This document shows positions 18 to 32,900 of a DNA stretch of 64,000 bases, piece after piece. The number at the start of each line of letters is the position of its first letter. The first letter of the stretch is position 1. This DNA comes from Escherichia phage vB_EcoM_PTE-Eco09. The stretch lies in sequence record PQ306574.1; one strand, written 5' to 3'. A program made the position numbers and the translations under genes. The notes under the pieces were generated by a model, which saw only the letters and a program-made list of their open reading frames with translations, was not told the DNA's origin and ran no database searches.

Positions 18-3000
18 TTAGTCTTCCCAGATAAAGTCTACGGTACGAGTCAGATTATTGGCGATGATTTTAACATTACCAACCTTGATCCAGTCACGAA
101 CCGTCATAGAGTTCATTAAACCACCTTCTGCAACAACTGCCCCGATTTCCTGAGCGGTAGGCTTATTCTGTTTGGTGTAAATTTCACCCCATGCGGTCCA
201 TTGACCACCAGTACCGGAACGGATATAATGTTTATGAGTACCATCAGGGGACCAAAGCTGGGTAAGCCCGTCCGCGTCAGTACCCCATTGCATCAGAGTA
301 CCGTTTTTCTTCTCTGGATAAGTTTCTTTGATGTTCTGGGTAGTAACTCGCATATTCCAGAAACCGATGTTACCGATTGCCGGAGCGGTTGCCGCGCTAG
401 CTTCATGCTTAACAGAAACAATAGGCGCATTATCCATAGTCAGCTTGCCGACCATTGTATCGCCAGCATTCTTAACAAACCGACGGTTAAGAACTTCGTC
501 GGCGTTTCCTGCGTGTACGATCTGATATTTCTGTCCGGCGATCTCTGTAGTTAACGTTTGAGAACCTGCCTTGATGTTAACACTTCCACCGTGACCGATA
601 TTCAGCGTACCATCTGGGGAACGAGTCATTGCCGGATTAGACTGGTCAACAATGTATAAACCGCCTTGTTTCGCATACAGGTTACGACCTGCAATAAAGT
701 CTCTATATGCTGTCGCGTCGCCATTGTGTTTCATAGCAAAGGCGTAATGCTCAACGACTCCACCATCATTGATTTTACCGAAAGAGATAGCATCACTATC
801 AACAACTTGCGCTGTTCCAGTACCACCAACGATAATAGACCAAGAGTTTTTCATTCCTTCCGATGCGGTTGTGCCATGCAGAGTAATTCCGGTGTGACCG
901 TCAACTCCACGATCACCCAACACCAGATGACCATTACTCGGAACATCGGTCGAGTTCTTAGTCACAGACAGAGTTTCAAAGGAACCTGATTTTAAGCACT
1001 CTAAATCGCCCTTCACGTTAACGTTTTTATTAAACGTGTAATTGCTCTCTATGGTCTGATCAATGTCTCTACGCGCCCATTTAGAGGCCTCTACGTTACC
1101 CAATTTCAAACTATTCTGAGCGGTTGCCATCTTAGGTAAGAAATTAGCAAGTGCGTAGTTTAATCCTTTAGGGGTAACAGCAATTCCGTCATGCTGGTAG
1201 TTTCCTAGTTCTTGAGTAGAACCTTGCAGATTATCACCAACAAAACAGTTTTCCTGAGTAGCAACTTTCAAGAATCCACGACGCGCTTCGGTTGCTTTCC
1301 ATGTATCCTCTGTCTGAACAACATATTTGAAGTTCTTCGGAGAAATTGCTACATTGTCCATAATACCAGCCACGGTTTCGGCGTGAGTACCAACTCGGAT
1401 AATACCTTCTTTACCTTCGGTGGCCTTTTTGCCTTGCAGCTTTTTAGGCGTGATGATTGTAGTATCATCTTGACCAGCGTCAGTAAGCTGAGTAGTCGCA
1501 ACTTTAGCGACACCTTTTGTATCTTCGGTTGCATCCAGACCGCTGATCATGATACCTTGCCACAAATCACCAGTAAGGTTAAGCCCCTGAGTCGGATCTA
1601 CTTTCAAACGCTGTGCATTCTCAAAGAAGGTTTTAATCTTCAATGGGGTAGAAATGCGATCATCGTCACGACCTGCGTCAAATTCCGGCTGAGTTGCAAT
1701 TTCTGCTAAACCGTGTAAAGTTTCCGTTGCGCGGCGAGTATGCAACTTTTTAGGCGTGATGATATGGTTATCACTTTGACCTAAGTTTGTTTCTTCCTGA
1801 GTTGCAATTTCAGCGATACCAGTGCGCGATTCGGTAGCAGTACGTTTCGTTAGCGTGCGAGTCGTGATTAGTAAAGCATCTTGCGGGGTTGATTCTGTAG
1901 CCCCTTGCACTTCCGCGTCAGTTGCCAGATAGCCAACACCACGGGAAGTTTCGGTCGCCTTGACTTCGTTGATGTTTTGTGGCGTAACAATTTTAGCATG
2001 GTCGTTGATGTTATAGATCCCTGTACCAGCTTCGCCACGTCGAGCGGCAGCACTACCGCCAACCTGAACAATTTCAGCAATACCAGCGAGATCTTCGGAA
2101 GCGCGACGTTCTTCTAATTTCTTAGGAGTTATTGCGCGAGTATCGTCTAAACCTTCATTGGTTTCGTGCTGGGTTGCAATTTCCATCACACCACGACGGG
2201 CTTCGGTAGCAACACAGTCATTTAACTTTTTGGGTGTAACGATAACATCATCCAGGAAGTTGGAACCAGTATCTTGATGCGTTTCCGCTTGAGTCGCAAT
2301 GCGAGCAATACCGCGTCGAGTTTCGTTGGCTGTTTTATTAGACAGCATTTTTGGTGTTACAGCAACTTCGTCGCTAGGATTCTCTTCATGGTTTTTATTC
2401 GTTTCAGTCTGGGTAGCCAGTGCAATTACACCAACACGATCTTTACGAGTCGGATCTACTCGTTCTACAATCGGGTGAGCATGTGCCACCAACCAGTATT
2501 TCTTACCATCATCACCTTCTGAATAAGAGAACTCCAGATAAGGTACATAATCATTTGCAGCGTTGAAAGACAATTCAGACACTCCAGTCCATGTATCGGT
2601 CCCATTGAATGGGTACTCGCTACGCTTAGGAAACTGAACCATGTTTTTCTGCATAAGGATTTTTGTATCCTCTTCTGAGGTAATGATTCGGCAAGTCTGG
2701 TTTCCGTGCATATACTGCATAGAAACTTGAATACGATCACCCGGCTCGACATTGGTCGGCAGCGTCAGAGTAACATCACGACCACCAAATACAGCAACAT
2801 AGCTATTAGGTTGCAAGCGAGTGTCATTGATGATCGGTTTAAGACGAACAGACTGATCACCATCCCACAAACGCCATAAGTTTTCCGTCTTGTCAAAGAT
2901 GAATACACCATGACCGCTACGCTTACCGATAATCTCTTTTAGACCGGACGTGCCAATTGATTGTTCTTCTGCGTGCTCATGAACTTTAACCGTAACGTGG

Positions 3001-7404: not shown

Positions 7405-8373
7405 ATGTTTAAACGCCAAGATTCTTCCAAACTGCAAGCTCAACTGGCCGCACTGAAAGGTGGCAACGGTTTCTCCAAAGAAGATCCGAAAGAGTGGAAG
7501 ATTAAGACTGATGCAGCAGGTAACGGTGAAGCCCTGATTCGCTTCCTGCCGTCTAAGACAGAAGACGGTCTGCCGATTGTGAAACTGGTAAACCATTCCT
7601 TCAAAGTTAATGGCAAATGGTATTGGGAAAACTGCTCCAGCACCCACGGTGATTTTGATTCTTGCCCTGTGTGCAAATATATTAACGAAAAAGACTTGTA
7701 CAATACCGATAAAACCGAATGGCAACTGATTAAGCGTAAAGCGTCTTACTACGCAAACATTCTGGTACTGAAAGATCCTCAAGCACCAGAAAATGAAGGT
7801 AAGGTATTCAAATTCCGCTTCGGTCAGAAAATTTATGATAAGATCGTTGCAATGGTGAACGTGAATACCGATATGGGCGAAGTTCCGGTCGATGTAACTT
7901 GTGTGTTCTCTGGTGCTAACTTCCTCCTGAAAGCTAAGAAGGTTGATAAACACCAGAACTATGATGATTCTCGTTTCATGCAGCAATCACAGCTTCCGAA
8001 AATTGAAGACGAAGCATATCAGAAATATCTGATGGAAAACATGGTTGATCTGAGTGAGATTGTAGCGCCTAGCCAGTTTAAACCGTTCGATGAACTGGAA
8101 ACCAAATTTAAGAAAACTATGGGCGTTTCTATGGTAGCTGGTGCTGCGGCTTCCAGTGCTGCGGCAGCGATTAACAGCCAGCTTGACGATTTTGACGCAC
8201 AGATGAATGCATTCGATTCTGGTATGACCGCAGCTAACACTGTAGTTGGTATTAACGCAGCTAGCACGGCGTTAGATTCTTCCGCTGATGACCTGATGGC
8301 ATCTCTGGACCTGGGTGGCGGTACTTCCTCCGCTTCTGATCTGGATGATCTTGACGCTCTGTTAGGGATGTAA
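7405..8373 (+). CDS. 32: single-stranded DNA-binding protein gp32
   Basis: Strong match to recalled T4 gp32 (LPSKxEDG, VNHxFKxNGKWYxExCSSTHGDxDSCPVCxYI, [29 protein letters not shown]); ATG at 7405 preceded by SD AAGGAA. Confidence 0.95.
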
Positions 8374-11144: not shown

Positions 11145-11414
11145 ATGAAAGTCGGTATTATTCAATTATGGACGGCTACCAGTGAAAACTACGCAGTAGC
11201 CGTAGATTATTACGGTTTACAATATCTCTATGATGAAGCGAGCGCATCATGGCTTCCTGTGCAAGAAAATAGCGATATCTCAAGACCTGCTACTATATTC
11301 GACCGTGGCGTTGTCTTTATCGATATTGACGAGACAGTAGCAAAACTGCGTAAGAAAGCAATCAACAAGAAAAAGGTGATGTGGGATGAAAGAATATTTG
11401 AAACTATTGCGTGA
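11145..11414 (+). CDS. hypothetical protein (frd-td intergenic ORF)
   Basis: ORF with ATG at 11145 overlapping td start; no recognisable domain. Confidence 0.35.
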   Translation: MKVGIIQLWTATSENYAVAVDYYGLQYLYDEASASWLPVQENSDISRPATIFDRGVVFIDIDETVAKLRKKAINKKKVMWDERIFETIA

Positions 11415-12606
11415 TGTTCTCGATAATGGCTGGCCTCGTGAAGATCGAACGGGGGTAGGTACGCTCTCTAAATTCGGCGCAGAGATGCGAATTGACTTAA
11501 GCAAGGGTTTCCCATTACTGACCACTAAAAAGATGGCTACAGCCTCTGTAATTGGCGAATTGCTATGGTTTATGGAGGGATCACTTGACCGCCGTCGCTT
11601 ACAGGAAATTACACGCGGTAAGTTTGACGAAGAAGCCTTCGACATTTGGCGCGGCAACTGTCTTGATATGAAAGAAAAGAATCCTTTGCGATTCAATGGT
11701 TATAATGTCGGCAATATGTATGGTATGGCGTGGCGACGCAAACCGATTCATCCACACGGTGAAATCAAAATTAAGCGCGTTAAGAGCAAATATACACATA
11801 CATTTAAGCACCCGTGGGTAGAAGACTTTACGCCAACCAATGAAACAGAAGACCGTTTATGTGCTATCTGGCGTGGTATGCGTTATGAAGAGTTTGATTA
11901 TATTCTGGTAGCAGACCACTGGAAGACTCAATCTAATTTTGTTAATGATGCATATTGCTTGTGGGGATTCCAGGAATGGGTAGATGATGGTTATTTCGGT
12001 TATCTGCTTGATAGTGATTATCTGGGTGGGGATATTATAGCACCGGATACCACGATGTTTGTTAGTATGGACGTAGACACATCAAGCACTAAAGACGATG
12101 AAGAATATGTCTATCGCCCGAAGATTTGGGAAGACCAGTTACAAAACGTGATCGAACAAATTAAAAACAATCCAACGGATCGCCGGATCATTATTGACTC
12201 ATGGAACGTACAAGGAACACATAATGCTGTATTAGGTGTATGTCATCCTTTCGTGCAATTCTACGTCAATGAAGGTAAACTGTCTTGTATGTGGTTTCAG
12301 CGAAGCGTAGACAGCTTTTTAGGCTTGCCCTTTAACGTCGCCAGCTATGCGCTGTTAACTCACATCATAGCGAAAATGTGTGATCTTGAGGTAGGAGAAC
12401 TGATTTTCTCTGGTGGAGATACTCACATTTACAAAAACCATTTTGATCAAGTCATGGAACAGTTAAGCCGTGTTCCGTTTGATAAACCAACAATTGAGTT
12501 GCCGGAATTTAAATCTTTAGATGAGGTATTGACAAAGACTCCGAAAGACTTTAAAATTCACAACTATCAAAGCCATCCAGCGATCACCGCTCAAATGGCA
12601 GTATAA
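11386..12606 (+). CDS. td: thymidylate synthase with large in-frame insertion
   Basis: Canonical ThyA blocks (DRTGVGT, FPLLTTKK, ELLWF, DRRIIIDSWN, CHPFVQFYV, LSCMWFQRSVD, FLGLPFNVASYALL, GDTHIYKNH) but 406 aa versus about 264-286 aa for typical enzymes. Confidence 0.9.
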   Translation: MKEYLKLLRDVLDNGWPREDRTGVGTLSKFGAEMRIDLSKGFPLLTTKKMATASVIGELLWFMEGSLDRRRLQEITRGKFDEEAFDIWRGNCLDMKEKNPLRFNGYNVGNMYGMAWRRKPIHPHGEIKIKRVKSKYTHTFKHPWVEDFTPTNETEDRLCAIWRGMRYEEFDYILVADHWKTQSNFVNDAYCLWGFQEWVDDGYFGYLLDSDYLGGDIIAPDTTMFVSMDVDTSSTKDDEEYVYRPKIWEDQLQNVIEQIKNNPTDRRIIIDSWNVQGTHNAVLGVCHPFVQFYVNEGKLSCMWFQRSVDSFLGLPFNVASYALLTHIIAKMCDLEVGELIFSGGDTHIYKNHFDQVMEQLSRVPFDKPTIELPEFKSLDEVLTKTPKDFKIHNYQSHPAITAQMAV

Positions 12607-12674: not shown

Positions 12675-14918
12675 ATGATTAAAAATGTTGTTAAGTCTTC
12701 CGGTCTGACTGTTCCGTTTGAAAAAGAAAAAGTAATGAAAATTCTGGAAGCGGCAGCCGAAGGTCATAACGTTGATCCATATGAATTGTTTGATATGGTT
12801 GAACCACTTCTGACAGAAGGTATGTCTACCAATGATATCCAGAAAGTATTGATTAAGGTCGCCGCAGATAACATCACGGTAGAAACACCCGATTATCAAT
12901 ATGTAGCAAGTAACCTTGCAATGTTCGCGCTTCGTAAATCAGTATACGGTCAATTCCAACCTATTGATTTTTATAGCCATATTGAGCGTAATATTGCAAC
13001 CGGAAAATATGATCGCGAAATTCTGCAAAAATATTCCCGTGAAGAAGTGGAATATCTGGAGAAATTCATCGACCATAAACTTGATTTTAAAATGACCTAT
13101 GCTGGTGCGATGCAGTTAAAAGAGAAATATCTTGTTCAGGATCGCAGCACTAAGAAAATCATCGAAACACCGCAATTTGCGTATATGCTGATCGGTATGT
13201 GCTTGCATCAAGAAGAGACCGAAAATCGACTTGAACATGTGATTGATTTTTATAATGCGGTTGCGAATAAGCAAATCTCTCTGCCTACTCCGATTATGGC
13301 AGGTGTGCGTACCCCAACACGCCAATTTAGTTCGTGTGTGGTGATTGAAAGTGATGACTCATTGCAGGGTATTAATGAAACCGCAAATGCAATCATCAAG
13401 TATATTAGCAAGCGTGCTGGTATCGGTATCAACGCTGGCATGATTCGCGCGGAAGGATCTAAGATCGGGCATGGTGAAGTTCGTCATACTGGAGTTATCC
13501 CATTCTGGAAACATTTTCAGACTGCCGTTAAGTCATGCTCACAAGGCGGTATTCGTGGCGGGGCGGCGACTCTCTATTACCCAATGTGGCATTTAGAGTT
13601 TGAAAGTCTGATTGTGTTAAAGAACAATAAGGGGGTGGAAGATAACCGCATTCGTCATCTTGATTACGGCGTACAGATTAATAACCTGATGGTAGAGCGA
13701 TTCCTTAAACGGGATTACATTACTCTGTTTAGTCCAGATGTTGCAGGTGGCTTGTTGTGGGATCTATACTTCCGAGATGAGGAAGGTTTCCGCCAGCTTT
13801 ACGAAAAACTGGAAAAAGATCCGAGTGTTCGTAAAACTCGTGTTAAAGCCGAAGACCTGTTTTTAGCGGTGGCAATTGAACGTTTTAACACTGGTCGAAT
13901 CTACCCAACGTTCACAGACAACATGAACAATCACGGGGCGTTTATTCGTAATGTAGCACCGATTAAACAATCTAACCTGTGTTGTGAAATTGCTCTGCCA
14001 ACAAAACCGATGGGTCGTGATGATTCAGAGATCAGCCTATGCACTTTGGCAGCATATGTTTTAGGTAATTTCGATATCGAAAATATGGAAGAAGTAGAAC
14101 GCATTGCTATGGTTATGGTGCGTGCACTTGACAACCTGTTAGATTATCAGGATTATCCTGTAGAACAAGCTCTGACAGCCAAAAAACGTCGCTCTCTGGG
14201 TGTTGGTGTGACTAACTTTGCATCGTATCTAGCAGATAATTTCTTCACATATGAAGACGCTAGCGAGTTTACGCATAAAACGTTTGAACGCTTGCAATAT
14301 GCTCTGATTAAGGCTAGTGTGCGACTGGCTAAAGAGAAGGGTGCTTGCGAACTGATGCACGAAACACGCTATGGTCGCGGTGAACTTCCTATCGACTGGT
14401 ACAAAAAGACAGTAGATGAACTGGTTGATCCGGTGTATGAGATGGATTGGGAAGAACTGCGCGAAGACCTGAAAAAATATGGCATTCGTAACAGTACGCT
14501 TTCGGCGCTGATGCCCTGTGAGTCATCTTCTCAGGTGTCTAACAGCACAAACGGTATTGAACCGCCTCGCGGGATTGTATCGGTTAAAGGATCGAAAGAA
14601 GGGCAATTTAATCAGGTTATTCCGAACGTAGAGAATAATGCTGATGTTATTGACCTGCTTTGGACACTGATCAAGAAAGGTAACAAGCCCTATCTGACAC
14701 TGGCAGCGATCATGCAGAAGTTTGTAGATCAGGCGATTAGTTCCAATACATCCTATGATCCAAGCACTTATAAGACTGGTAAAGTCGATATTGCTGATGT
14801 GTTAGATGATATGTTGTTCGCTCAACATTACGGTCTGAAAACCCTGTATTATGCGAACGTTCGCGACGGTGCAGATGGTACGGAAGACGCTAGCGAGTGC
14901 TCATCTTGCAAGCTGTAA
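12675..14918 (+). CDS. nrdA: aerobic ribonucleotide reductase large subunit
   Basis: 747-aa ORF with class I RNR alpha features and C-terminal Cys pair (ECSSCKL). Confidence 0.95.
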   Translation: MIKNVVKSSGLTVPFEKEKVMKILEAAAEGHNVDPYELFDMVEPLLTEGMSTNDIQKVLIKVAADNITVETPDYQYVASNLAMFALRKSVYGQFQPIDFYSHIERNIATGKYDREILQKYSREEVEYLEKFIDHKLDFKMTYAGAMQLKEKYLVQDRSTKKIIETPQFAYMLIGMCLHQEETENRLEHVIDFYNAVANKQISLPTPIMAGVRTPTRQFSSCVVIESDDSLQGINETANAIIKYISKRAGIGINAGMIRAEGSKIGHGEVRHTGVIPFWKHFQTAVKSCSQGGIRGGAATLYYPMWHLEFESLIVLKNNKGVEDNRIRHLDYGVQINNLMVERFLKRDYITLFSPDVAGGLLWDLYFRDEEGFRQLYEKLEKDPSVRKTRVKAEDLFLAVAIERFNTGRIYPTFTDNMNNHGAFIRNVAPIKQSNLCCEIALPTKPMGRDDSEISLCTLAAYVLGNFDIENMEEVERIAMVMVRALDNLLDYQDYPVEQALTAKKRRSLGVGVTNFASYLADNFFTYEDASEFTHKTFERLQYALIKASVRLAKEKGACELMHETRYGRGELPIDWYKKTVDELVDPVYEMDWEELREDLKKYGIRNSTLSALMPCESSSQVSNSTNGIEPPRGIVSVKGSKEGQFNQVIPNVENNADVIDLLWTLIKKGNKPYLTLAAIMQKFVDQAISSNTSYDPSTYKTGKVDIADVLDDMLFAQHYGLKTLYYANVRDGADGTEDASECSSCKL

Positions 14919-14926
14919 AATAAGTG

Positions 14927-14955
14927 TTGACGCGGGGAGAAATCCCCGCTATAAT
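14927..14955 (+). promoter_or_regulatory. PeSL-type early promoter (stem-loop in spacer)
   Basis: TTGACG 14927-14932, spacer CGGGGAGAAATCCCCGC (palindrome), TATAAT 14950-14955. Confidence 0.6.
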
Positions 14956-14986: not shown

Positions 14987-15154
14987 ATGACCAAATTAAA
15001 ATGTGTTGCTGTAGATTTTGAGCTAGCTGATAGCTTTGTTGTTGGTGATGAATATGATGCTCGACATGATGGGACTTGCTACTACGTCGAGGATGAATAC
15101 GGTGTAGAATGGGCGATTCTTCCTGATGATAAATGTTTTGAGGTTGTCGGATAA
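14987..15154 (+). CDS. hypothetical small acidic protein
   Basis: 55-aa ORF after PeSL promoter and SD GTGAGGA. Confidence 0.4.
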   Translation: MTKLKCVAVDFELADSFVVGDEYDARHDGTCYYVEDEYGVEWAILPDDKCFEVVG

Positions 15155-15330
15155 TGGCTACTGTATGGTTATTGATTGCAATAAGCAATTCAATGTATAA
15201 TTACGGAAATATGTCAAGCATTGAGTTTGCAACAAAGCAGGATTGCGTTAAAGCTCGCGAGATTATCCGCGAAGACAATAAACGCTTTATGAATCTATAT
15301 TGCGTTGAAAAACAAAAGGTGAACTAATGG
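15154..15330 (+). CDS. hypothetical small protein with N-terminal hydrophobic segment (paralog 1)
   Basis: MATVWLLIAISNSMYNYGNMSSIEFATKQDC...; start overlaps upstream stop. Confidence 0.3.
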
Positions 15331-15494
15331 CTACATTATGGTTATTGCTTTCCGTTAGCGTAGGCGTATATAATAAAGGAACTGTTACCAGCGTAGAGTT
15401 TTCATCATATCAAAATTGTTTTGAAGCTGTGCAGGAATTGCAGCAGGATAGCGAAATAAACAGAAATACTAAGTTCTTTTGTGTTAAAAAGTGA
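15327..15494 (+). CDS. hypothetical small protein with N-terminal hydrophobic segment (paralog 2)
   Basis: MATLWLLLSVSVGVYNKGTVTSVEFSSYQNC...; tandem paralog of previous ORF, start overlaps its stop. Confidence 0.3.
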   Translation: MATLWLLLSVSVGVYNKGTVTSVEFSSYQNCFEAVQELQQDSEINRNTKFFCVKK

Positions 15495-15502
15495 TAGTGA
15501 GG

Positions 15503-15562
15503 TGAATTAATCCTTCTTCTGGATACCTGATAAATAATGGTATACAGAAAAGAGGATTAATT
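15503..15562 (+). promoter_or_regulatory. inverted repeat sequestering the RBS of the downstream HNH gene
   Basis: GAATTAATCCT (15503-15513) pairs with AGGATTAATTC (15552-15562); 3' arm contains SD GAGGA, ATG at 15564. Confidence 0.5.
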
Positions 15563-15563
15563 C

Positions 15564-16211
15564 ATGAACTTACAAAAACTACATGACGCAATCATAGAAA
15601 AAGCAAAGACGAGAGGAACCGTTGAAGGGTATAAGGAAACACATCATATTTTACCGCGATCTATGGGTGGCGGTGATGAAGTTGATAACCTGATTGAGTT
15701 GACAGCAAAAGAACATTTCGTGATTCATCATCTGCTAGCAAAAATTCATGGTGGACCTATGGCACAAGCATTTGGTATGATGTGTTTAGCAAAAAATGCG
15801 AAGACCAATAAAAGAGATTATATTGTTTCGTCTAGGGTATATGAACAAGCTAGGGTACTTATCTCTGAACAAAGAAAGGGCAAACCTATGAAAGAAGAAA
15901 CGCGAAGAAAGATTAGCGAATCTTCGAAAGGTGTGTTGAAATCAGAAGAGACAAAAGCTAAAATGCGTAAGCCAAAAACAAAGGAGCACGCGTTAAACAT
16001 TTCAAAAGCTAGAATGGGCAGTAAAAATCCTATGTTTGGGAAACCATCGCCAACTAAAGGAATACCACATAGTGAGGAAATGAGAAAGCTGATTGCACAA
16101 AGGACAAAGGAAGCAACAATGGCAGATCCTTGTCCGCATTGCGGTAAAATTACCAATAAAGGCAATTCTCTACGATGGCACTTTGATAACTGTAAAATGA
16201 GGAATATGTGA
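15564..16211 (+). CDS. mobE: HNH homing endonuclease with NUMOD3-like repeats (mobE-like position)
   Basis: HNH motif (THHILPRSMGGGDEVDNLIELTAKEHFVIHH) and repeated K/R-rich NUMOD-like motifs; located between nrdA and nrdB as T4 mobE. Confidence 0.7.
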   Translation: MNLQKLHDAIIEKAKTRGTVEGYKETHHILPRSMGGGDEVDNLIELTAKEHFVIHHLLAKIHGGPMAQAFGMMCLAKNAKTNKRDYIVSSRVYEQARVLISEQRKGKPMKEETRRKISESSKGVLKSEETKAKMRKPKTKEHALNISKARMGSKNPMFGKPSPTKGIPHSEEMRKLIAQRTKEATMADPCPHCGKITNKGNSLRWHFDNCKMRNM

Positions 16212-17378
16212 ATGGGAAATACGGTATTTAATCGTGAACACGTTGATATTATGAATGAACCGATGTTTCTGGGCAGCGGTTTAGGTATCGCTCGTTATGA
16301 CATTCAGCGTCATCAAGTATTTGAAGAATTAATTGAAAAATCTCTGTCATTTTTTTGGCGCCCCGAAGAAATTTCACTTGCAACCGACCGCATTCAATAT
16401 CTTAATATGGGTGACGTTGAAAAGCGTTTCTTTACTGAAAACTTGAAGTATCAGACATTACTTGATTCTATTCAAGGTCGCGCACCGTCCGCAGCATTTG
16501 GTCCAATTGTATCTGATCCAACTCTCGATACATGGTTGCAAACATGGACATTCAGCGAAACGATTCATAGCCGAAGCTATACACACATTATGCGTAACTG
16601 TTTCATTGATCCGGCTAGTGAGTTCGACCAGATCATCGATAACCCTGCTATCATGAAGCGAGCGGAATCTATCGGGAAATATTATGATGATGTTCTTTAT
16701 TGGATTCGTAAGTATGAGAATGCAAAAGAAGATCTCCGCTATTGGGAAGAACGAGACGACCAGACAGCATTAGATGATGCAAGAAGATTTTTTGAAGATA
16801 CAAAACGAGATCTGATGGCTTCGATTTATCTGTGTGCACACTGCGTAAATGCACTGGAAGCAATCCGTTTTTATGTGTCCTTTGCATGTACTTTCAGCTT
16901 TGCCGAACGTGGTTTACTGGAAGGTAACGCGAAGATCATGAAATTTATTGCGCGTGATGAACAACTTCACTTAAAAGGAACACAATACATTATTCGTCAA
17001 TGGCAAACGGGGGTTGATGGTGATGAGTGGAAACAGATTGCGGAAGAACTTGAAGGCGAAGCAACGAAAATCTTTCTGGATGTTGTCGAGCAAGAAAAAG
17101 AATGGGTAGACCACCTATTCGCAATGGGGGCAATTCCTAACCTGTCACCGGAAATTCTGAAAACCTATGTAGAATACCTGGCAGATTCCCGTATGCGTGC
17201 TGCCGGACTGAAAAGCCCGTTTAGTGTTCGTCGTCATCCGTTACCGTGGATGCGTAAATGGTTGAACTCTGACGAAGTACAGAATGCAGCGCAGGAAGTA
17301 GAGATTATGTATCTGGTATCTCAGGTTAATACCGATTTAACAGACGACGACTACAACCGATTCGGGAAATATCTATGA
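16212..17378 (+). CDS. nrdB: aerobic ribonucleotide reductase small subunit
   Basis: 388-aa ORF with class I RNR beta di-iron/tyrosyl-radical-type fold features; position after nrdA. Confidence 0.9.
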   Translation: MGNTVFNREHVDIMNEPMFLGSGLGIARYDIQRHQVFEELIEKSLSFFWRPEEISLATDRIQYLNMGDVEKRFFTENLKYQTLLDSIQGRAPSAAFGPIVSDPTLDTWLQTWTFSETIHSRSYTHIMRNCFIDPASEFDQIIDNPAIMKRAESIGKYYDDVLYWIRKYENAKEDLRYWEERDDQTALDDARRFFEDTKRDLMASIYLCAHCVNALEAIRFYVSFACTFSFAERGLLEGNAKIMKFIARDEQLHLKGTQYIIRQWQTGVDGDEWKQIAEELEGEATKIFLDVVEQEKEWVDHLFAMGAIPNLSPEILKTYVEYLADSRMRAAGLKSPFSVRRHPLPWMRKWLNSDEVQNAAQEVEIMYLVSQVNTDLTDDDYNRFGKYL

Positions 17379-23187: not shown

Positions 23188-23494
23188 ACAAGTTGATAAT
23201 ATCGCACTTCGTGAAGCACTAAAGAAAATGTTTTCGGTCGGTACTCACTCTTTTCAGTTTACTAAGAAAGATGGTACTGTCCGTGAGATGATCGCCACGC
23301 GAGATCCGGCACTGATGCCGTTTGAAACATACGAAAAGTGGTTAGTTCCGAATGTTGAAAAACCGCGTAAAGAATCAGAAACATCTTTGCCAGTATATGA
23401 AATTGCAGTTGAAGGTTTCCGTAGTTTTGGGCTTGATAGTCTGATTAATGTAGACGGGCTGACTCCAGCGCAGATCGTCGAAATTTATAAATAA
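23174..23494 (+). CDS. hypothetical protein
   Basis: 106-aa ORF overlapping cd stop. Confidence 0.4.
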   Translation: MIMTEQVDNIALREALKKMFSVGTHSFQFTKKDGTVREMIATRDPALMPFETYEKWLVPNVEKPRKESETSLPVYEIAVEGFRSFGLDSLINVDGLTPAQIVEIYK

Positions 23495-26613: not shown

Positions 26614-26925
26614 ATGAAATACATCGTAACGCTGCCAATGATTGACTTCGACGGAACCATGAACACCCAGAAGACCATGAGCGCGGAGAACCAACTGAAA
26701 AACGCTACCCTGATTCGTGAAGTTCGCAAGGCACTGGCAAAAGAATTTAACACCAAAATTCATTCTGTAACTGGCGAACGTTTCGCGGATCATCTTGATA
26801 TCAACATCAAACCAGTGCGCAACGGTGTTATCTCTGTAACAACCAGCCGCCCACATGCTGACGCTGATAATCTGACCGCTCGCGCAGAAGATGTAATTAT
26901 GACCGTTATCATGGAAAAACTTTAA
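26614..26925 (+). CDS. hypothetical protein
   Basis: 103-aa ORF after PeSL cassette. Confidence 0.45.
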   Translation: MKYIVTLPMIDFDGTMNTQKTMSAENQLKNATLIREVRKALAKEFNTKIHSVTGERFADHLDINIKPVRNGVISVTTSRPHADADNLTARAEDVIMTVIMEKL

Positions 26926-30217: not shown

Positions 30218-30246
30218 TTGACGGGGATCGGGAGATCCCCTATAAT
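30218..30246 (+). promoter_or_regulatory. PeSL-type early promoter
   Basis: TTGACG, spacer GGGATCGGGAGATCCCC, TATAAT. Confidence 0.6.
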
Positions 30247-32594: not shown

Positions 32595-32623
32595 TTGACA
32601 GGGGATCGGTGATCCCCTATAAT
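32595..32623 (+). promoter_or_regulatory. PeSL-type early promoter
   Basis: TTGACA, spacer GGGGATCGGTGATCCCC (identical to 26546 copy), TATAAT. Confidence 0.6.
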
Positions 32624-32878: not shown

Positions 32879-32900
32879 GGGGCGTTAAGCCCCGTTTTCA
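32879..32900 (+). terminator. intrinsic terminator
   Basis: GGGGC-GTTAA-GCCCC hairpin followed by GTTTTCA. Confidence 0.6.

Follow-up and report, generated by a model that had tools for sequence, protein, structure and literature searches.

The window analysed here, a stretch of 64,000 nucleotides (nt) from Escherichia phage vB_EcoM_PTE-Eco09 (record PQ306574.1), carries at the start of nrdB a gene for a free-standing homing endonuclease, and the ribosome-binding site of this gene lies largely within one arm of a perfect inverted repeat. An original prediction, made from the sequence alone, had described an HNH endonuclease gene between nrdA and nrdB with an inverted repeat that sequesters its ribosome-binding site. 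The leader and the gene comprise the following features (SD, Shine-Dalgarno sequence; MFE, minimum-free-energy structure):

15503-15514 (+): hairpin 5' arm, UGAAUUAAUCCU, ending on its 3' side in an anti-SD-like UCCU; invariant in 13/13 copies
15515-15552 (+): hairpin interior, in which two more short helices (CUUCUG/CAGAA and AUACC/GGUAU) lead up to an 11-nt apical loop; MFE and centroid are the same structure
15529-15536 (+): late-promoter-like motif GATAAATA, 7/8 of the T4-type TATAAATA, with G at -13; 27 nt upstream of the ATG
15552-15556 (+): SD of the endonuclease gene, GAGGA, with a 7-nt spacer to the ATG; base-paired in both MFE and centroid
15553-15564 (+): hairpin 3' arm, AGGAUUAAUUCA, which takes in SD bases 2-5, the spacer in full and the A that opens the AUG
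15564-16211 (+): gene for a MobE-type HNH/NUMOD3 free-standing homing endonuclease, 215 aa

The endonuclease gene and the helix over its start

Judged by its homologies, the open reading frame (ORF) encodes a MobE-type free-standing HNH homing endonuclease, an identity that the original prediction had given correctly. The protein matches PHROG 655 ('homing endonuclease') at 1.8e-55 and Pfam NUMOD3 at 2.7e-09, and it aligns over its full length with T4 MobE, whose gene lies between nrdA and nrdB, at 49% identity (E 2e-77); among characterised proteins, T4 MobE is the nearest to it. An HNH motif, ETHHILPRSMGGGDEVDNL...EH..IHH, occupies the N-terminus; with the N-terminal 79 residues taken in isolation, Pfam HNH scores 21.0 bits, just below the 21.4 cut-off, and HNH domains of solved structures (PDB) match at E 0.02-0.05. 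Across 14 homologues, H27, H28, N42, H51 and H55 are invariant, as are C190, P191, C193, G194, H206 and C210 of a C-terminal CPHCG...H..C motif. Thirteen copies of the ORF differ at 35 synonymous and 8 nonsynonymous sites; the per-site ratio of ~0.06 indicates that the protein is under purifying selection, and an intact ORF so maintained appears compatible with endonuclease activity. As to its position, the ORF directly adjoins nrdB; on the nrdA side, three small ORFs intervene.

The true start of the gene is the ATG at 15564. An upstream ATG at 15537 was considered and rejected: it has no SD, is followed in the window by an in-frame TAA and is missing from the predicted late RNA described below. 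The database records of phages FL15, SSG23 and SFHK24 nevertheless call the ORF 27 nt too long, from the ATG at the position of 15537, because the A-to-T variant at 15559 deletes the in-frame TAA; they are three among five deposited genomes that have this variant.

A repeat finder returns a perfect inverted repeat of 12 nt (100% complementary), with arms TGAATTAATCCT (15503-15514) and AGGATTAATTCA (15553-15564) separated by 38 nt; along the strand, AAAAAGTGATAGTGAGG precedes the 5' arm and TGAAC follows the 3' arm. The repeat that had been described as an 11-bp element is therefore real but one nucleotide longer, and its 3' arm includes four of the five SD bases rather than all of them; G15552 lies outside the perfect repeat and is predicted to form a G.U pair with U15515. 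The further statement that the SD stands two nucleotides before the ATG was mistaken: GAGGA ends at 15556, leaving a gap of 7 nt to the start codon at 15564-15566, whose A closes the 3' arm.

The RNA spanning 15495-15580 is predicted to fold into a single extended hairpin in which the 12-bp stem is lengthened by wobble pairs. Its folding energy is -31.8 kcal/mol, compared with -11.6 +/- 2.8 kcal/mol for 200 dinucleotide shuffles (z -7.27), none of which folds as well; the contrast with shuffled controls on which the original prediction depended is thus borne out. Embedded in a 121-nt context, the fold reaches -40 kcal/mol (z -7.8). When every 86-nt window of either strand of the 64 kb is folded (mean -14.7, sd 4.8 kcal/mol), the hairpin ranks eighth in stability when distinct sites are counted. 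Single long hairpins of comparable or greater stability (-32 to -34 kcal/mol per 86 nt) also occur at 26790-26875 (-), 8116-8201 (+), 755-840 (-) and 2010-2095 (-).

What distinguishes the endonuclease leader among start regions is the cost of exposing the start. With 80-120 nt of RNA upstream, the calculated cost of opening 15551-15566 is 17.3-18.7 kcal/mol. Of the window's 82 SD-preceded candidate starts (median 4.9, 95th percentile 9.6), no other costs as much, and a perfect 12-nt complement of the start region arose within the upstream 67 nt in only 1 of 20,000 shuffles. With both the SD and the AUG occluded, the sequestration of the ribosome-binding site that had been proposed is upheld by these calculations; the leader has the stable helix over SD and start codon that marks a member of this class. 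Other starts that are costly to open (30245, 34309, 59960 and 747) were rejected as further examples, being a promoter stem-loop or spurious antisense ORFs. A reading of the stem as a Rho-independent terminator was likewise dismissed: it is AT-rich, is followed by AUGAACUUACAAAAA with no U-tract, and is absent from the hits of a terminator scan.

The leader is strongly conserved. Across the 13 copies, two of its 67 nt vary, namely 15551 (A/C, unpaired) and 15559 (A/T), as against 35 of ~133 synonymous sites in the ORF (~26%; Fisher p 1.5e-5), and no variation at all occurs in the loop, in its promoter motif or in the 5' arm. Position 15559 is the sole variable position of the stem, carrying A in the window and in phage JSE and T in five phages; the T allele introduces one U.U mismatch and a fold of -27.9 kcal/mol, and the perfect repeat is limited to the window, JSE and six metagenomic (Logan) contigs. 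Since the mismatch is present in five of the seven carriers, maximal stability of the stem is evidently not required.

Insertion at nrdB and recurrence of the leader design

The surroundings of the gene record how it came to lie where it does. The relevant features are as follows:

15497-15511 (+): relic of the old nrdB initiation region, GTGAGGTGAATTAAT, with SD GAGG, spacer and the first two ATG bases; identical in non-carriers
15512-16223 (+): inserted segment of 712 nt, replacing GAGC of non-carriers and bringing the leader, the gene and, for nrdB, a new SD and new initial codons
16199-16214 (+): new nrdB start region, with SD GAGGA (16199-16203) among the last codons of the endonuclease ORF, the TGA of that ORF at 16209-16211 and the nrdB ATG at 16212
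16212-17378 (+): nrdB, starting immediately after the endonuclease ORF
16232-16301 (+): tract of synonymous differences at the 5' end of nrdB (16232, 16235, 16241, 16256, 16277, 16280, 16283, 16295 and 16301)

The phage belongs to Krischvirus, the RB49/Phi1/JSE group of T4-like coliphages. Among 58 Krischvirus records that match the flanks, seven carry the endonuclease gene, representing six phages (JSE, under two accessions, AV108, FL15, phiS, SSG23 and SFHK24); in the others, nrdB directly follows the small ORFs. Ten further metagenome-assembled contigs encode an identical endonuclease protein. Such presence/absence polymorphism is as expected for a homing endonuclease gene.

In the non-carriers Phi1 and LF73P4, the sequence GTGAGGTGAATTA-ATG-AGC-GTA-TTT-AAC provides the SD, spacer and start of nrdB. 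The window is identical to the non-carriers through GAATTAAT (15511), diverges thereafter, and regains homology at GTATTTAA (16224), such that NrdB begins MGNTVFNREH in place of the MSVFNREH of endonuclease-negative phages. The outer nine bases of the hairpin's 5' arm, TGAATTAAT, are consequently the last 9 nt of the orphaned nrdB start region, which in endonuclease-negative phages is unstructured (z +1.4). This overlap of the 5' arm with the former nrdB start was overlooked in the original prediction, as were the polymorphism of the gene and the late-promoter motif in the loop.

Nine synonymous differences within nrdB nt ~21-90 separate carriers from non-carriers; eight are fixed, and at 16301 phiS has the non-carrier base. 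The tract may represent a co-converted donor flank, immunity substitutions against the phage's own enzyme, or both. Polymorphisms deeper in nrdB, those of the FFWRPEE codons included, are not linked to the endonuclease gene. In T4, a MobE-dependent nick falls at nrdB nt 122-126 (Wilson & Edgell 2009, PMC2790892), further into the gene than the linked polymorphisms seen here; substitutions linked to the endonuclease were sought in the FFWRPEE codons of that nick region and discounted, given that JSE (positive) equals KFS-EC (negative) there. In the nrdB of phage Cognac, a one-base length difference occurs in the T-run of the FFW codons (window ~16355-16365), and the annotation splits the gene into two ORFs; the difference, whether a genuine frameshift or an error of sequencing, is located in the region of the T4 MobE-dependent nick.

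Beyond the near-identical copies, the protein database shows a gap down to relatives at 53% identity. A protein-only scan of IMG/VR gave no close relatives and a JGI metagenome scan nothing closer than 38-47% identity, so that covariation could be assessed only with two of the 53% homologues: those with readable flanking DNA are L026 (P0004) and L030 (P0002), a third (P0003) being available without DNA. L026 belongs to another T4-like phage, with nrdA before it and nrdB after it. In L030, a 348-residue upstream ORF is taken as nrdA, on a short contig with no family assignment on record.

Both homologues have a hairpin of the same design. The arms of L026, CATAAACCTTCTTTT and AAGAGGAAGGTTTATG, pair the SD through the AUG (-29 kcal/mol, z -5.9); those of L030, TTATGGAGTCCT and AGGACTCCATAA, between which lies GATATAAATA, close on the A of the AUG as in the window (-24.5 kcal/mol, z -4.9). 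Their perfect start complements, of 11 and 12 nt, were equalled in none of 20,000 shuffles each, and in both a canonical (8/8) TATAAATA stands between the arms at a position homologous to that of GATAAATA. A leader core, C[CA]TTCTT.TG.A..CCTGATA, is homologous across all three, and in the leader alignment ATTAATCCTTCTTCTGGATACCTGATA of the window corresponds to CATAAACCTTCTTTTGAAAACCTGATA of L026 and TTATTCATTCTTATGGAGTCCTGATA of L030. The arms themselves differ from those of the window in sequence and in position, and the two genes occupy a short gap directly after nrdA rather than an insertion at the nrdB start. RNAalifold applied to a MAFFT alignment of the three leaders accordingly yields 6 weak pairs only, the alignment tracking primary-sequence homology; because the 5' arms sit at different places in it, the support that the relatives lend is that of a recurrent design and not of classical compensatory change. 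In the T4-type mobE genes (T4, LF82-1 and L031), the start complements measure 4-5 nt, a length that shuffles reach just as well.

Among 86 homologues surveyed there are also four distant ones from T4-like phages (L047, L101, L039 and L051) in which TATAAATA lies in the 5' arm of an SD-pairing hairpin, a layout that is the arrangement of I-TevI and of gene e. Eight IMG/VR homologues at 31-36% identity (L037, L042, L048, L054, L080, L088, L099 and L106) have the ORF 5 nt after NATAAATA, which itself comes after a terminator and a TTGAC box; their start codons were called automatically and may be off. This group looks like a sigma-70-type promoter with a nearly leaderless mRNA, a strategy unlike that of the hairpin type.

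A late-promoter-like motif and the proposed switch

The sequence between the arms contains GATAAATA. The T4 late motif spans -13 to -6, and in RB49-type phages T at -13 is poorly conserved, A or T being common (PMC1524935). Transcription from the loop motif is predicted to start at ~15542, ~6 nt past it, producing an RNA without the 5' arm and without the 5' halves of the inner helices; this RNA folds at -4.3 kcal/mol, like its shuffles. For RNAs beginning at 15540-15544, opening the start region costs 3.7-3.8 kcal/mol, which is below the window median. ATAAATA occurs five times on the + strand of the 64 kb, with none upstream of the loop copy and the next at 23486, and the distance from the loop motif to the ATG fits that of the window's canonical TATAAATA sites, which lie 20-45 nt upstream of SD-preceded start codons. 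Variant motifs, CATAAATA and AATAAATA, also stand 29-40 nt upstream of SD-preceded starts at 32899 (+), 46816 (+) and 3794 (-), a hint that at other sites the phage may use bases other than T at -13.

Upstream of the leader, the features that bear on early transcription are these:

12675-14918 (+): nrdA, the upstream neighbour
14927-14955 (+): sigma-70-type early promoter, TTGACG-cggggagaaatccccgc-TATAAT, directly after nrdA; 11/12 consensus, with an internal GGGG...CCCC stem-loop, PeSL-like
14987-15154, 15154-15327 and 15327-15494 (+): three small ORFs with function unassigned (PHROG 16302, and PHROG 5579 twice)

The window holds four copies of TTGAC-N18-TATAAT against 0.11 expected, three of which carry G-run/C-run stems (14927-14955, 30218-30246 and 32595-32623, all +). 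PeSL early promoter cassettes have been described for RB49 and Phi1 (PMC2839356), and the stem-loop promoters of the window look like them. Early transcripts that extend from the small ORFs across the hairpin and the endonuclease gene into nrdB probably originate at the 14927-14955 promoter: the endonuclease gene is co-directional with nrdA and nrdB, and the terminator scan found no terminator-like site on the + strand between this promoter and the gene. By this arrangement, the gene sits in an apparent early polycistronic unit that reads through the 69-nt intergenic leader.

Taken together, these features probably mark a MobE-family cassette that inserted at the nrdB start codon and is gated by a temporal translational switch. 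On early transcripts, issuing from the 14927-14955 promoter and from nrdA read-through, the whole leader would be present and the 5' arm (15503-15514) would pair with the segment 15553-15564, which holds most of the SD, the spacer and the A of the AUG, so that ribosomes could not initiate on the endonuclease ORF; translation of nrdB would continue from its own SD in the end of that ORF, independently of endonuclease translation. After the onset of replication, a gp55-type late sigma factor would initiate at GATAAATA, and the resulting RNAs, beginning at ~15542 without the 5' arm, would expose the SD and be translated. Since late RNAs would escape the hairpin, the endonuclease would be made only late. 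RB49-type phages lack both middle promoters and motA (PMC1524935), and with no middle mode the switch in Krischvirus would be one of early versus late only. What the analysis establishes is the hairpin with its exceptional stability, the geometry, the constraint on the leader and the recurrence of the design in relatives; both the firing of the promoter and the difference in translation between the two RNA forms we infer from sequence.

Several points weigh against this interpretation. The folding energies are predictions for an isolated RNA. The motif matches at 7/8 and has G at -13, where the literature on RB49-type phages gives A or T (PMC1524935), so that its activity may be low or absent. 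Covariation is lacking within Krischvirus, and the T allele at 15559 stands in five of the seven sequenced carriers (the window counted) with no compensating change. Nor are the arms of L026 and L030 homologous, position by position, with the window's arms.

The imperfect motif leaves some room for constitutive repression, in which the hairpin would hold the gene down with no working late promoter and a trickle of enzyme, limiting toxicity, would be made through breathing of the stem. Beyond the base at -13, this reading would be in keeping with T4 mobE, which has no promoter and is held down by a different device (PMC2790892), the hairpin being then a functional analogue of the internal terminator that limits the T4 gene; the mismatch allele in five phages would also suit selection for leak. 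We nonetheless consider it unlikely, as both readable relatives retain the canonical TATAAATA in the corresponding position, copies of the motif elsewhere on this strand are very few, and the loop is invariant in 13 copies in the face of ~26% variation at synonymous sites. Action of the stem at some other level, whether in RNase III or RNase E processing, in stability of the nrdB message, in transcription attenuation or as an operator in the DNA to which the endonuclease itself binds, seems improbable. The composite stem of ~23 base pairs is within the reach of RNase III, and I-TevI is documented to repress itself by binding an operator that overlies its late promoter (PMC2988022, section 10); however, the missing U-tract and the negative terminator scan speak against an attenuator, and an I-TevI-like operator, for which the leader would have to resemble a putative homing site, was rejected, the leader and the nrdB 5' region of non-carriers being similar only in the shared arm 9-mer. 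None of these proposals explains why the 3' arm should be the exact SD-to-AUG segment in three lineages.

The stem might also be an unselected by-product of the insertion, the 5' arm being a leftover nrdB ribosome-binding region to which an AT-rich palindromic core eases complementarity. Nine of the twelve 5'-arm bases are indeed identical in phages without the gene, ATTAAT, its own reverse complement, occurs in both arms, and most carriers tolerate the mismatch. Set against the frequency of a 12-nt complement in shuffles (1/20,000), the fold z of -7.3, the rank of this start as the most occluded of 82, the equivalent hairpins of different sequence that relatives have in other contexts and the significant conservation of the leader, such an accident is very hard to credit. 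A variant of the temporal switch, doubtful though worth stating, is that the hairpin is rebuilt from host sequence at each insertion site; if general, this would mean that homing-endonuclease cassettes bring with them only the promoter and the SD-bearing half of the switch and obtain the other half locally. In the window, the displaced nrdB ribosome-binding region would have supplied the outer 4-9 bp of the 5' arm, and the TTCA before the endonuclease ATG would have been fitted after insertion, or the cassette would have landed through microhomology between an anti-SD arm and the nrdB start. A host-recruited arm would explain why arm sequences differ between lineages under a constant design; the homology of ATTAATCCTTCTTCTGGATACCTGATA, CATAAACCTTCTTTTGAAAACCTGATA and TTATTCATTCTTATGGAGTCCTGATA in the leaders argues instead that the cassette had an arm of its own and that the left junction looks like microhomology.

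Known systems and other features of the region

The proposed switch has close precedents, and the original prediction was right to cite hairpins on T4 homing endonuclease genes. A hairpin that sequesters the ribosome-binding site, combined with a late promoter that spares late RNA, is documented for I-TevI, I-TevII, I-TevIII and Aeh1 mobE, with segB implicated, and the same control operates on T4 genes e, soc and 49 (PMC2988022 section 12; PMC3014915). As proposed for the window gene, the I-TevI-type systems of T4 lock the SD, the AUG or both on early/middle read-through RNA, and a nearby TATAAATA late promoter gives a shorter, translatable RNA. The T4 endonucleases concerned differ in being GIY-YIG enzymes (I-TevI, I-TevII) or intron-borne, whereas the window gene is of the HNH type and free-standing; protection of intron folding, one rationale offered for the T4 cases, is thus inapplicable to it.

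The closest case is mobE of Aeromonas phage Aeh1 (Gibb & Edgell 2007, 2009, in the summaries of PMC2988022 section 12 and PMC3014915), likewise a free-standing MobE-family HNH gene at the aerobic ribonucleotide reductase locus. It is described as having a hairpin over the ribosome-binding site and a late promoter that lets late transcripts escape. Aeh1 mobE splits nrdA, while the window gene lies at the nrdB start. The late promoter of Aeh1 is also divergent, reading CTAAATA (PMC1524935) where the window has GATAAATA.

T4 mobE shares the nrdA/mobE/nrdB neighbourhood and a stop that abuts the nrdB start (an ATGA overlap in T4), but it is controlled differently: its start overlaps the nrdA stop, it has no leader, hairpin over the ribosome-binding site or promoter, and its brake is an internal terminator (PMC2790892) 27 nt into the ORF. 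That terminator is visible in the T4 fold and has no counterpart in the window gene. Regulation of the T4 mobE type was accordingly rejected here, given that a 69-nt leader precedes the ORF and that the terminator scan detected no terminator-like site on the + strand within 15564-16211. In the 3' half of the ORF, ~250 nt before nrdB, a sigma-70-like match (15936-15964, +; TTGAAA-17-TAAAAT, 10/12) recalls the nrdB promoter embedded in T4 mobE; sigma-70-like matches in the region do not exceed shuffle expectation (13 as against 14.4).

The combination of a hairpin and a late promoter has reportedly been known since 1988 and is said to have been shown for a mobE gene in 2009. The leader analysed here is thus a well-supported and tidy new example of a known mechanism, and it opens no new question. 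It would extend the switch of hairpin and internal late promoter to the RB49/JSE group, in which transcription is early and late only, and within the MobE family the switch seems to accompany the gene in several lineages, T4 mobE using a different brake. Relatives within Krischvirus are studied for phage therapy, and for phage engineering the leader and gene offer a compact, self-contained and probably late-only expression cassette. In the literature consulted we found no description of this particular leader; two mob-like genes are listed there for JSE (PMC2993671).

Further observations concern the neighbouring genes. A thymidylate synthase ORF at 11386-12606 (+; 406 aa) gives a split match to Pfam Thymidylat_synt, its middle holding ~120-140 extra residues that match no Pfam family, and residues 250-406 correspond to profile positions 110-266. 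The three small ORFs between nrdA and the endonuclease gene are hypothetical proteins in the annotation of Phi1, phiS and SSG23. The last two of them, at 15154-15327 and 15327-15494 (+), are tandem paralogues of 57 and 55 aa that begin MAT(V/L)WLL and are joined by ATGA-type overlaps; both PHROG 5579 paralogues are cleanly deleted in JSE, AV108 and FL15 and retained in phiS, SSG23 and SFHK24. Directly after nrdA, LF73P4 has a DNA cytosine-methyltransferase-like frame (574-1423 of L003), apparently split over two frames, and KMB43 has an annotated DNA-cytosine methyltransferase at the same place; this is a second polymorphic insertion in the hot spot that the endonuclease gene occupies.

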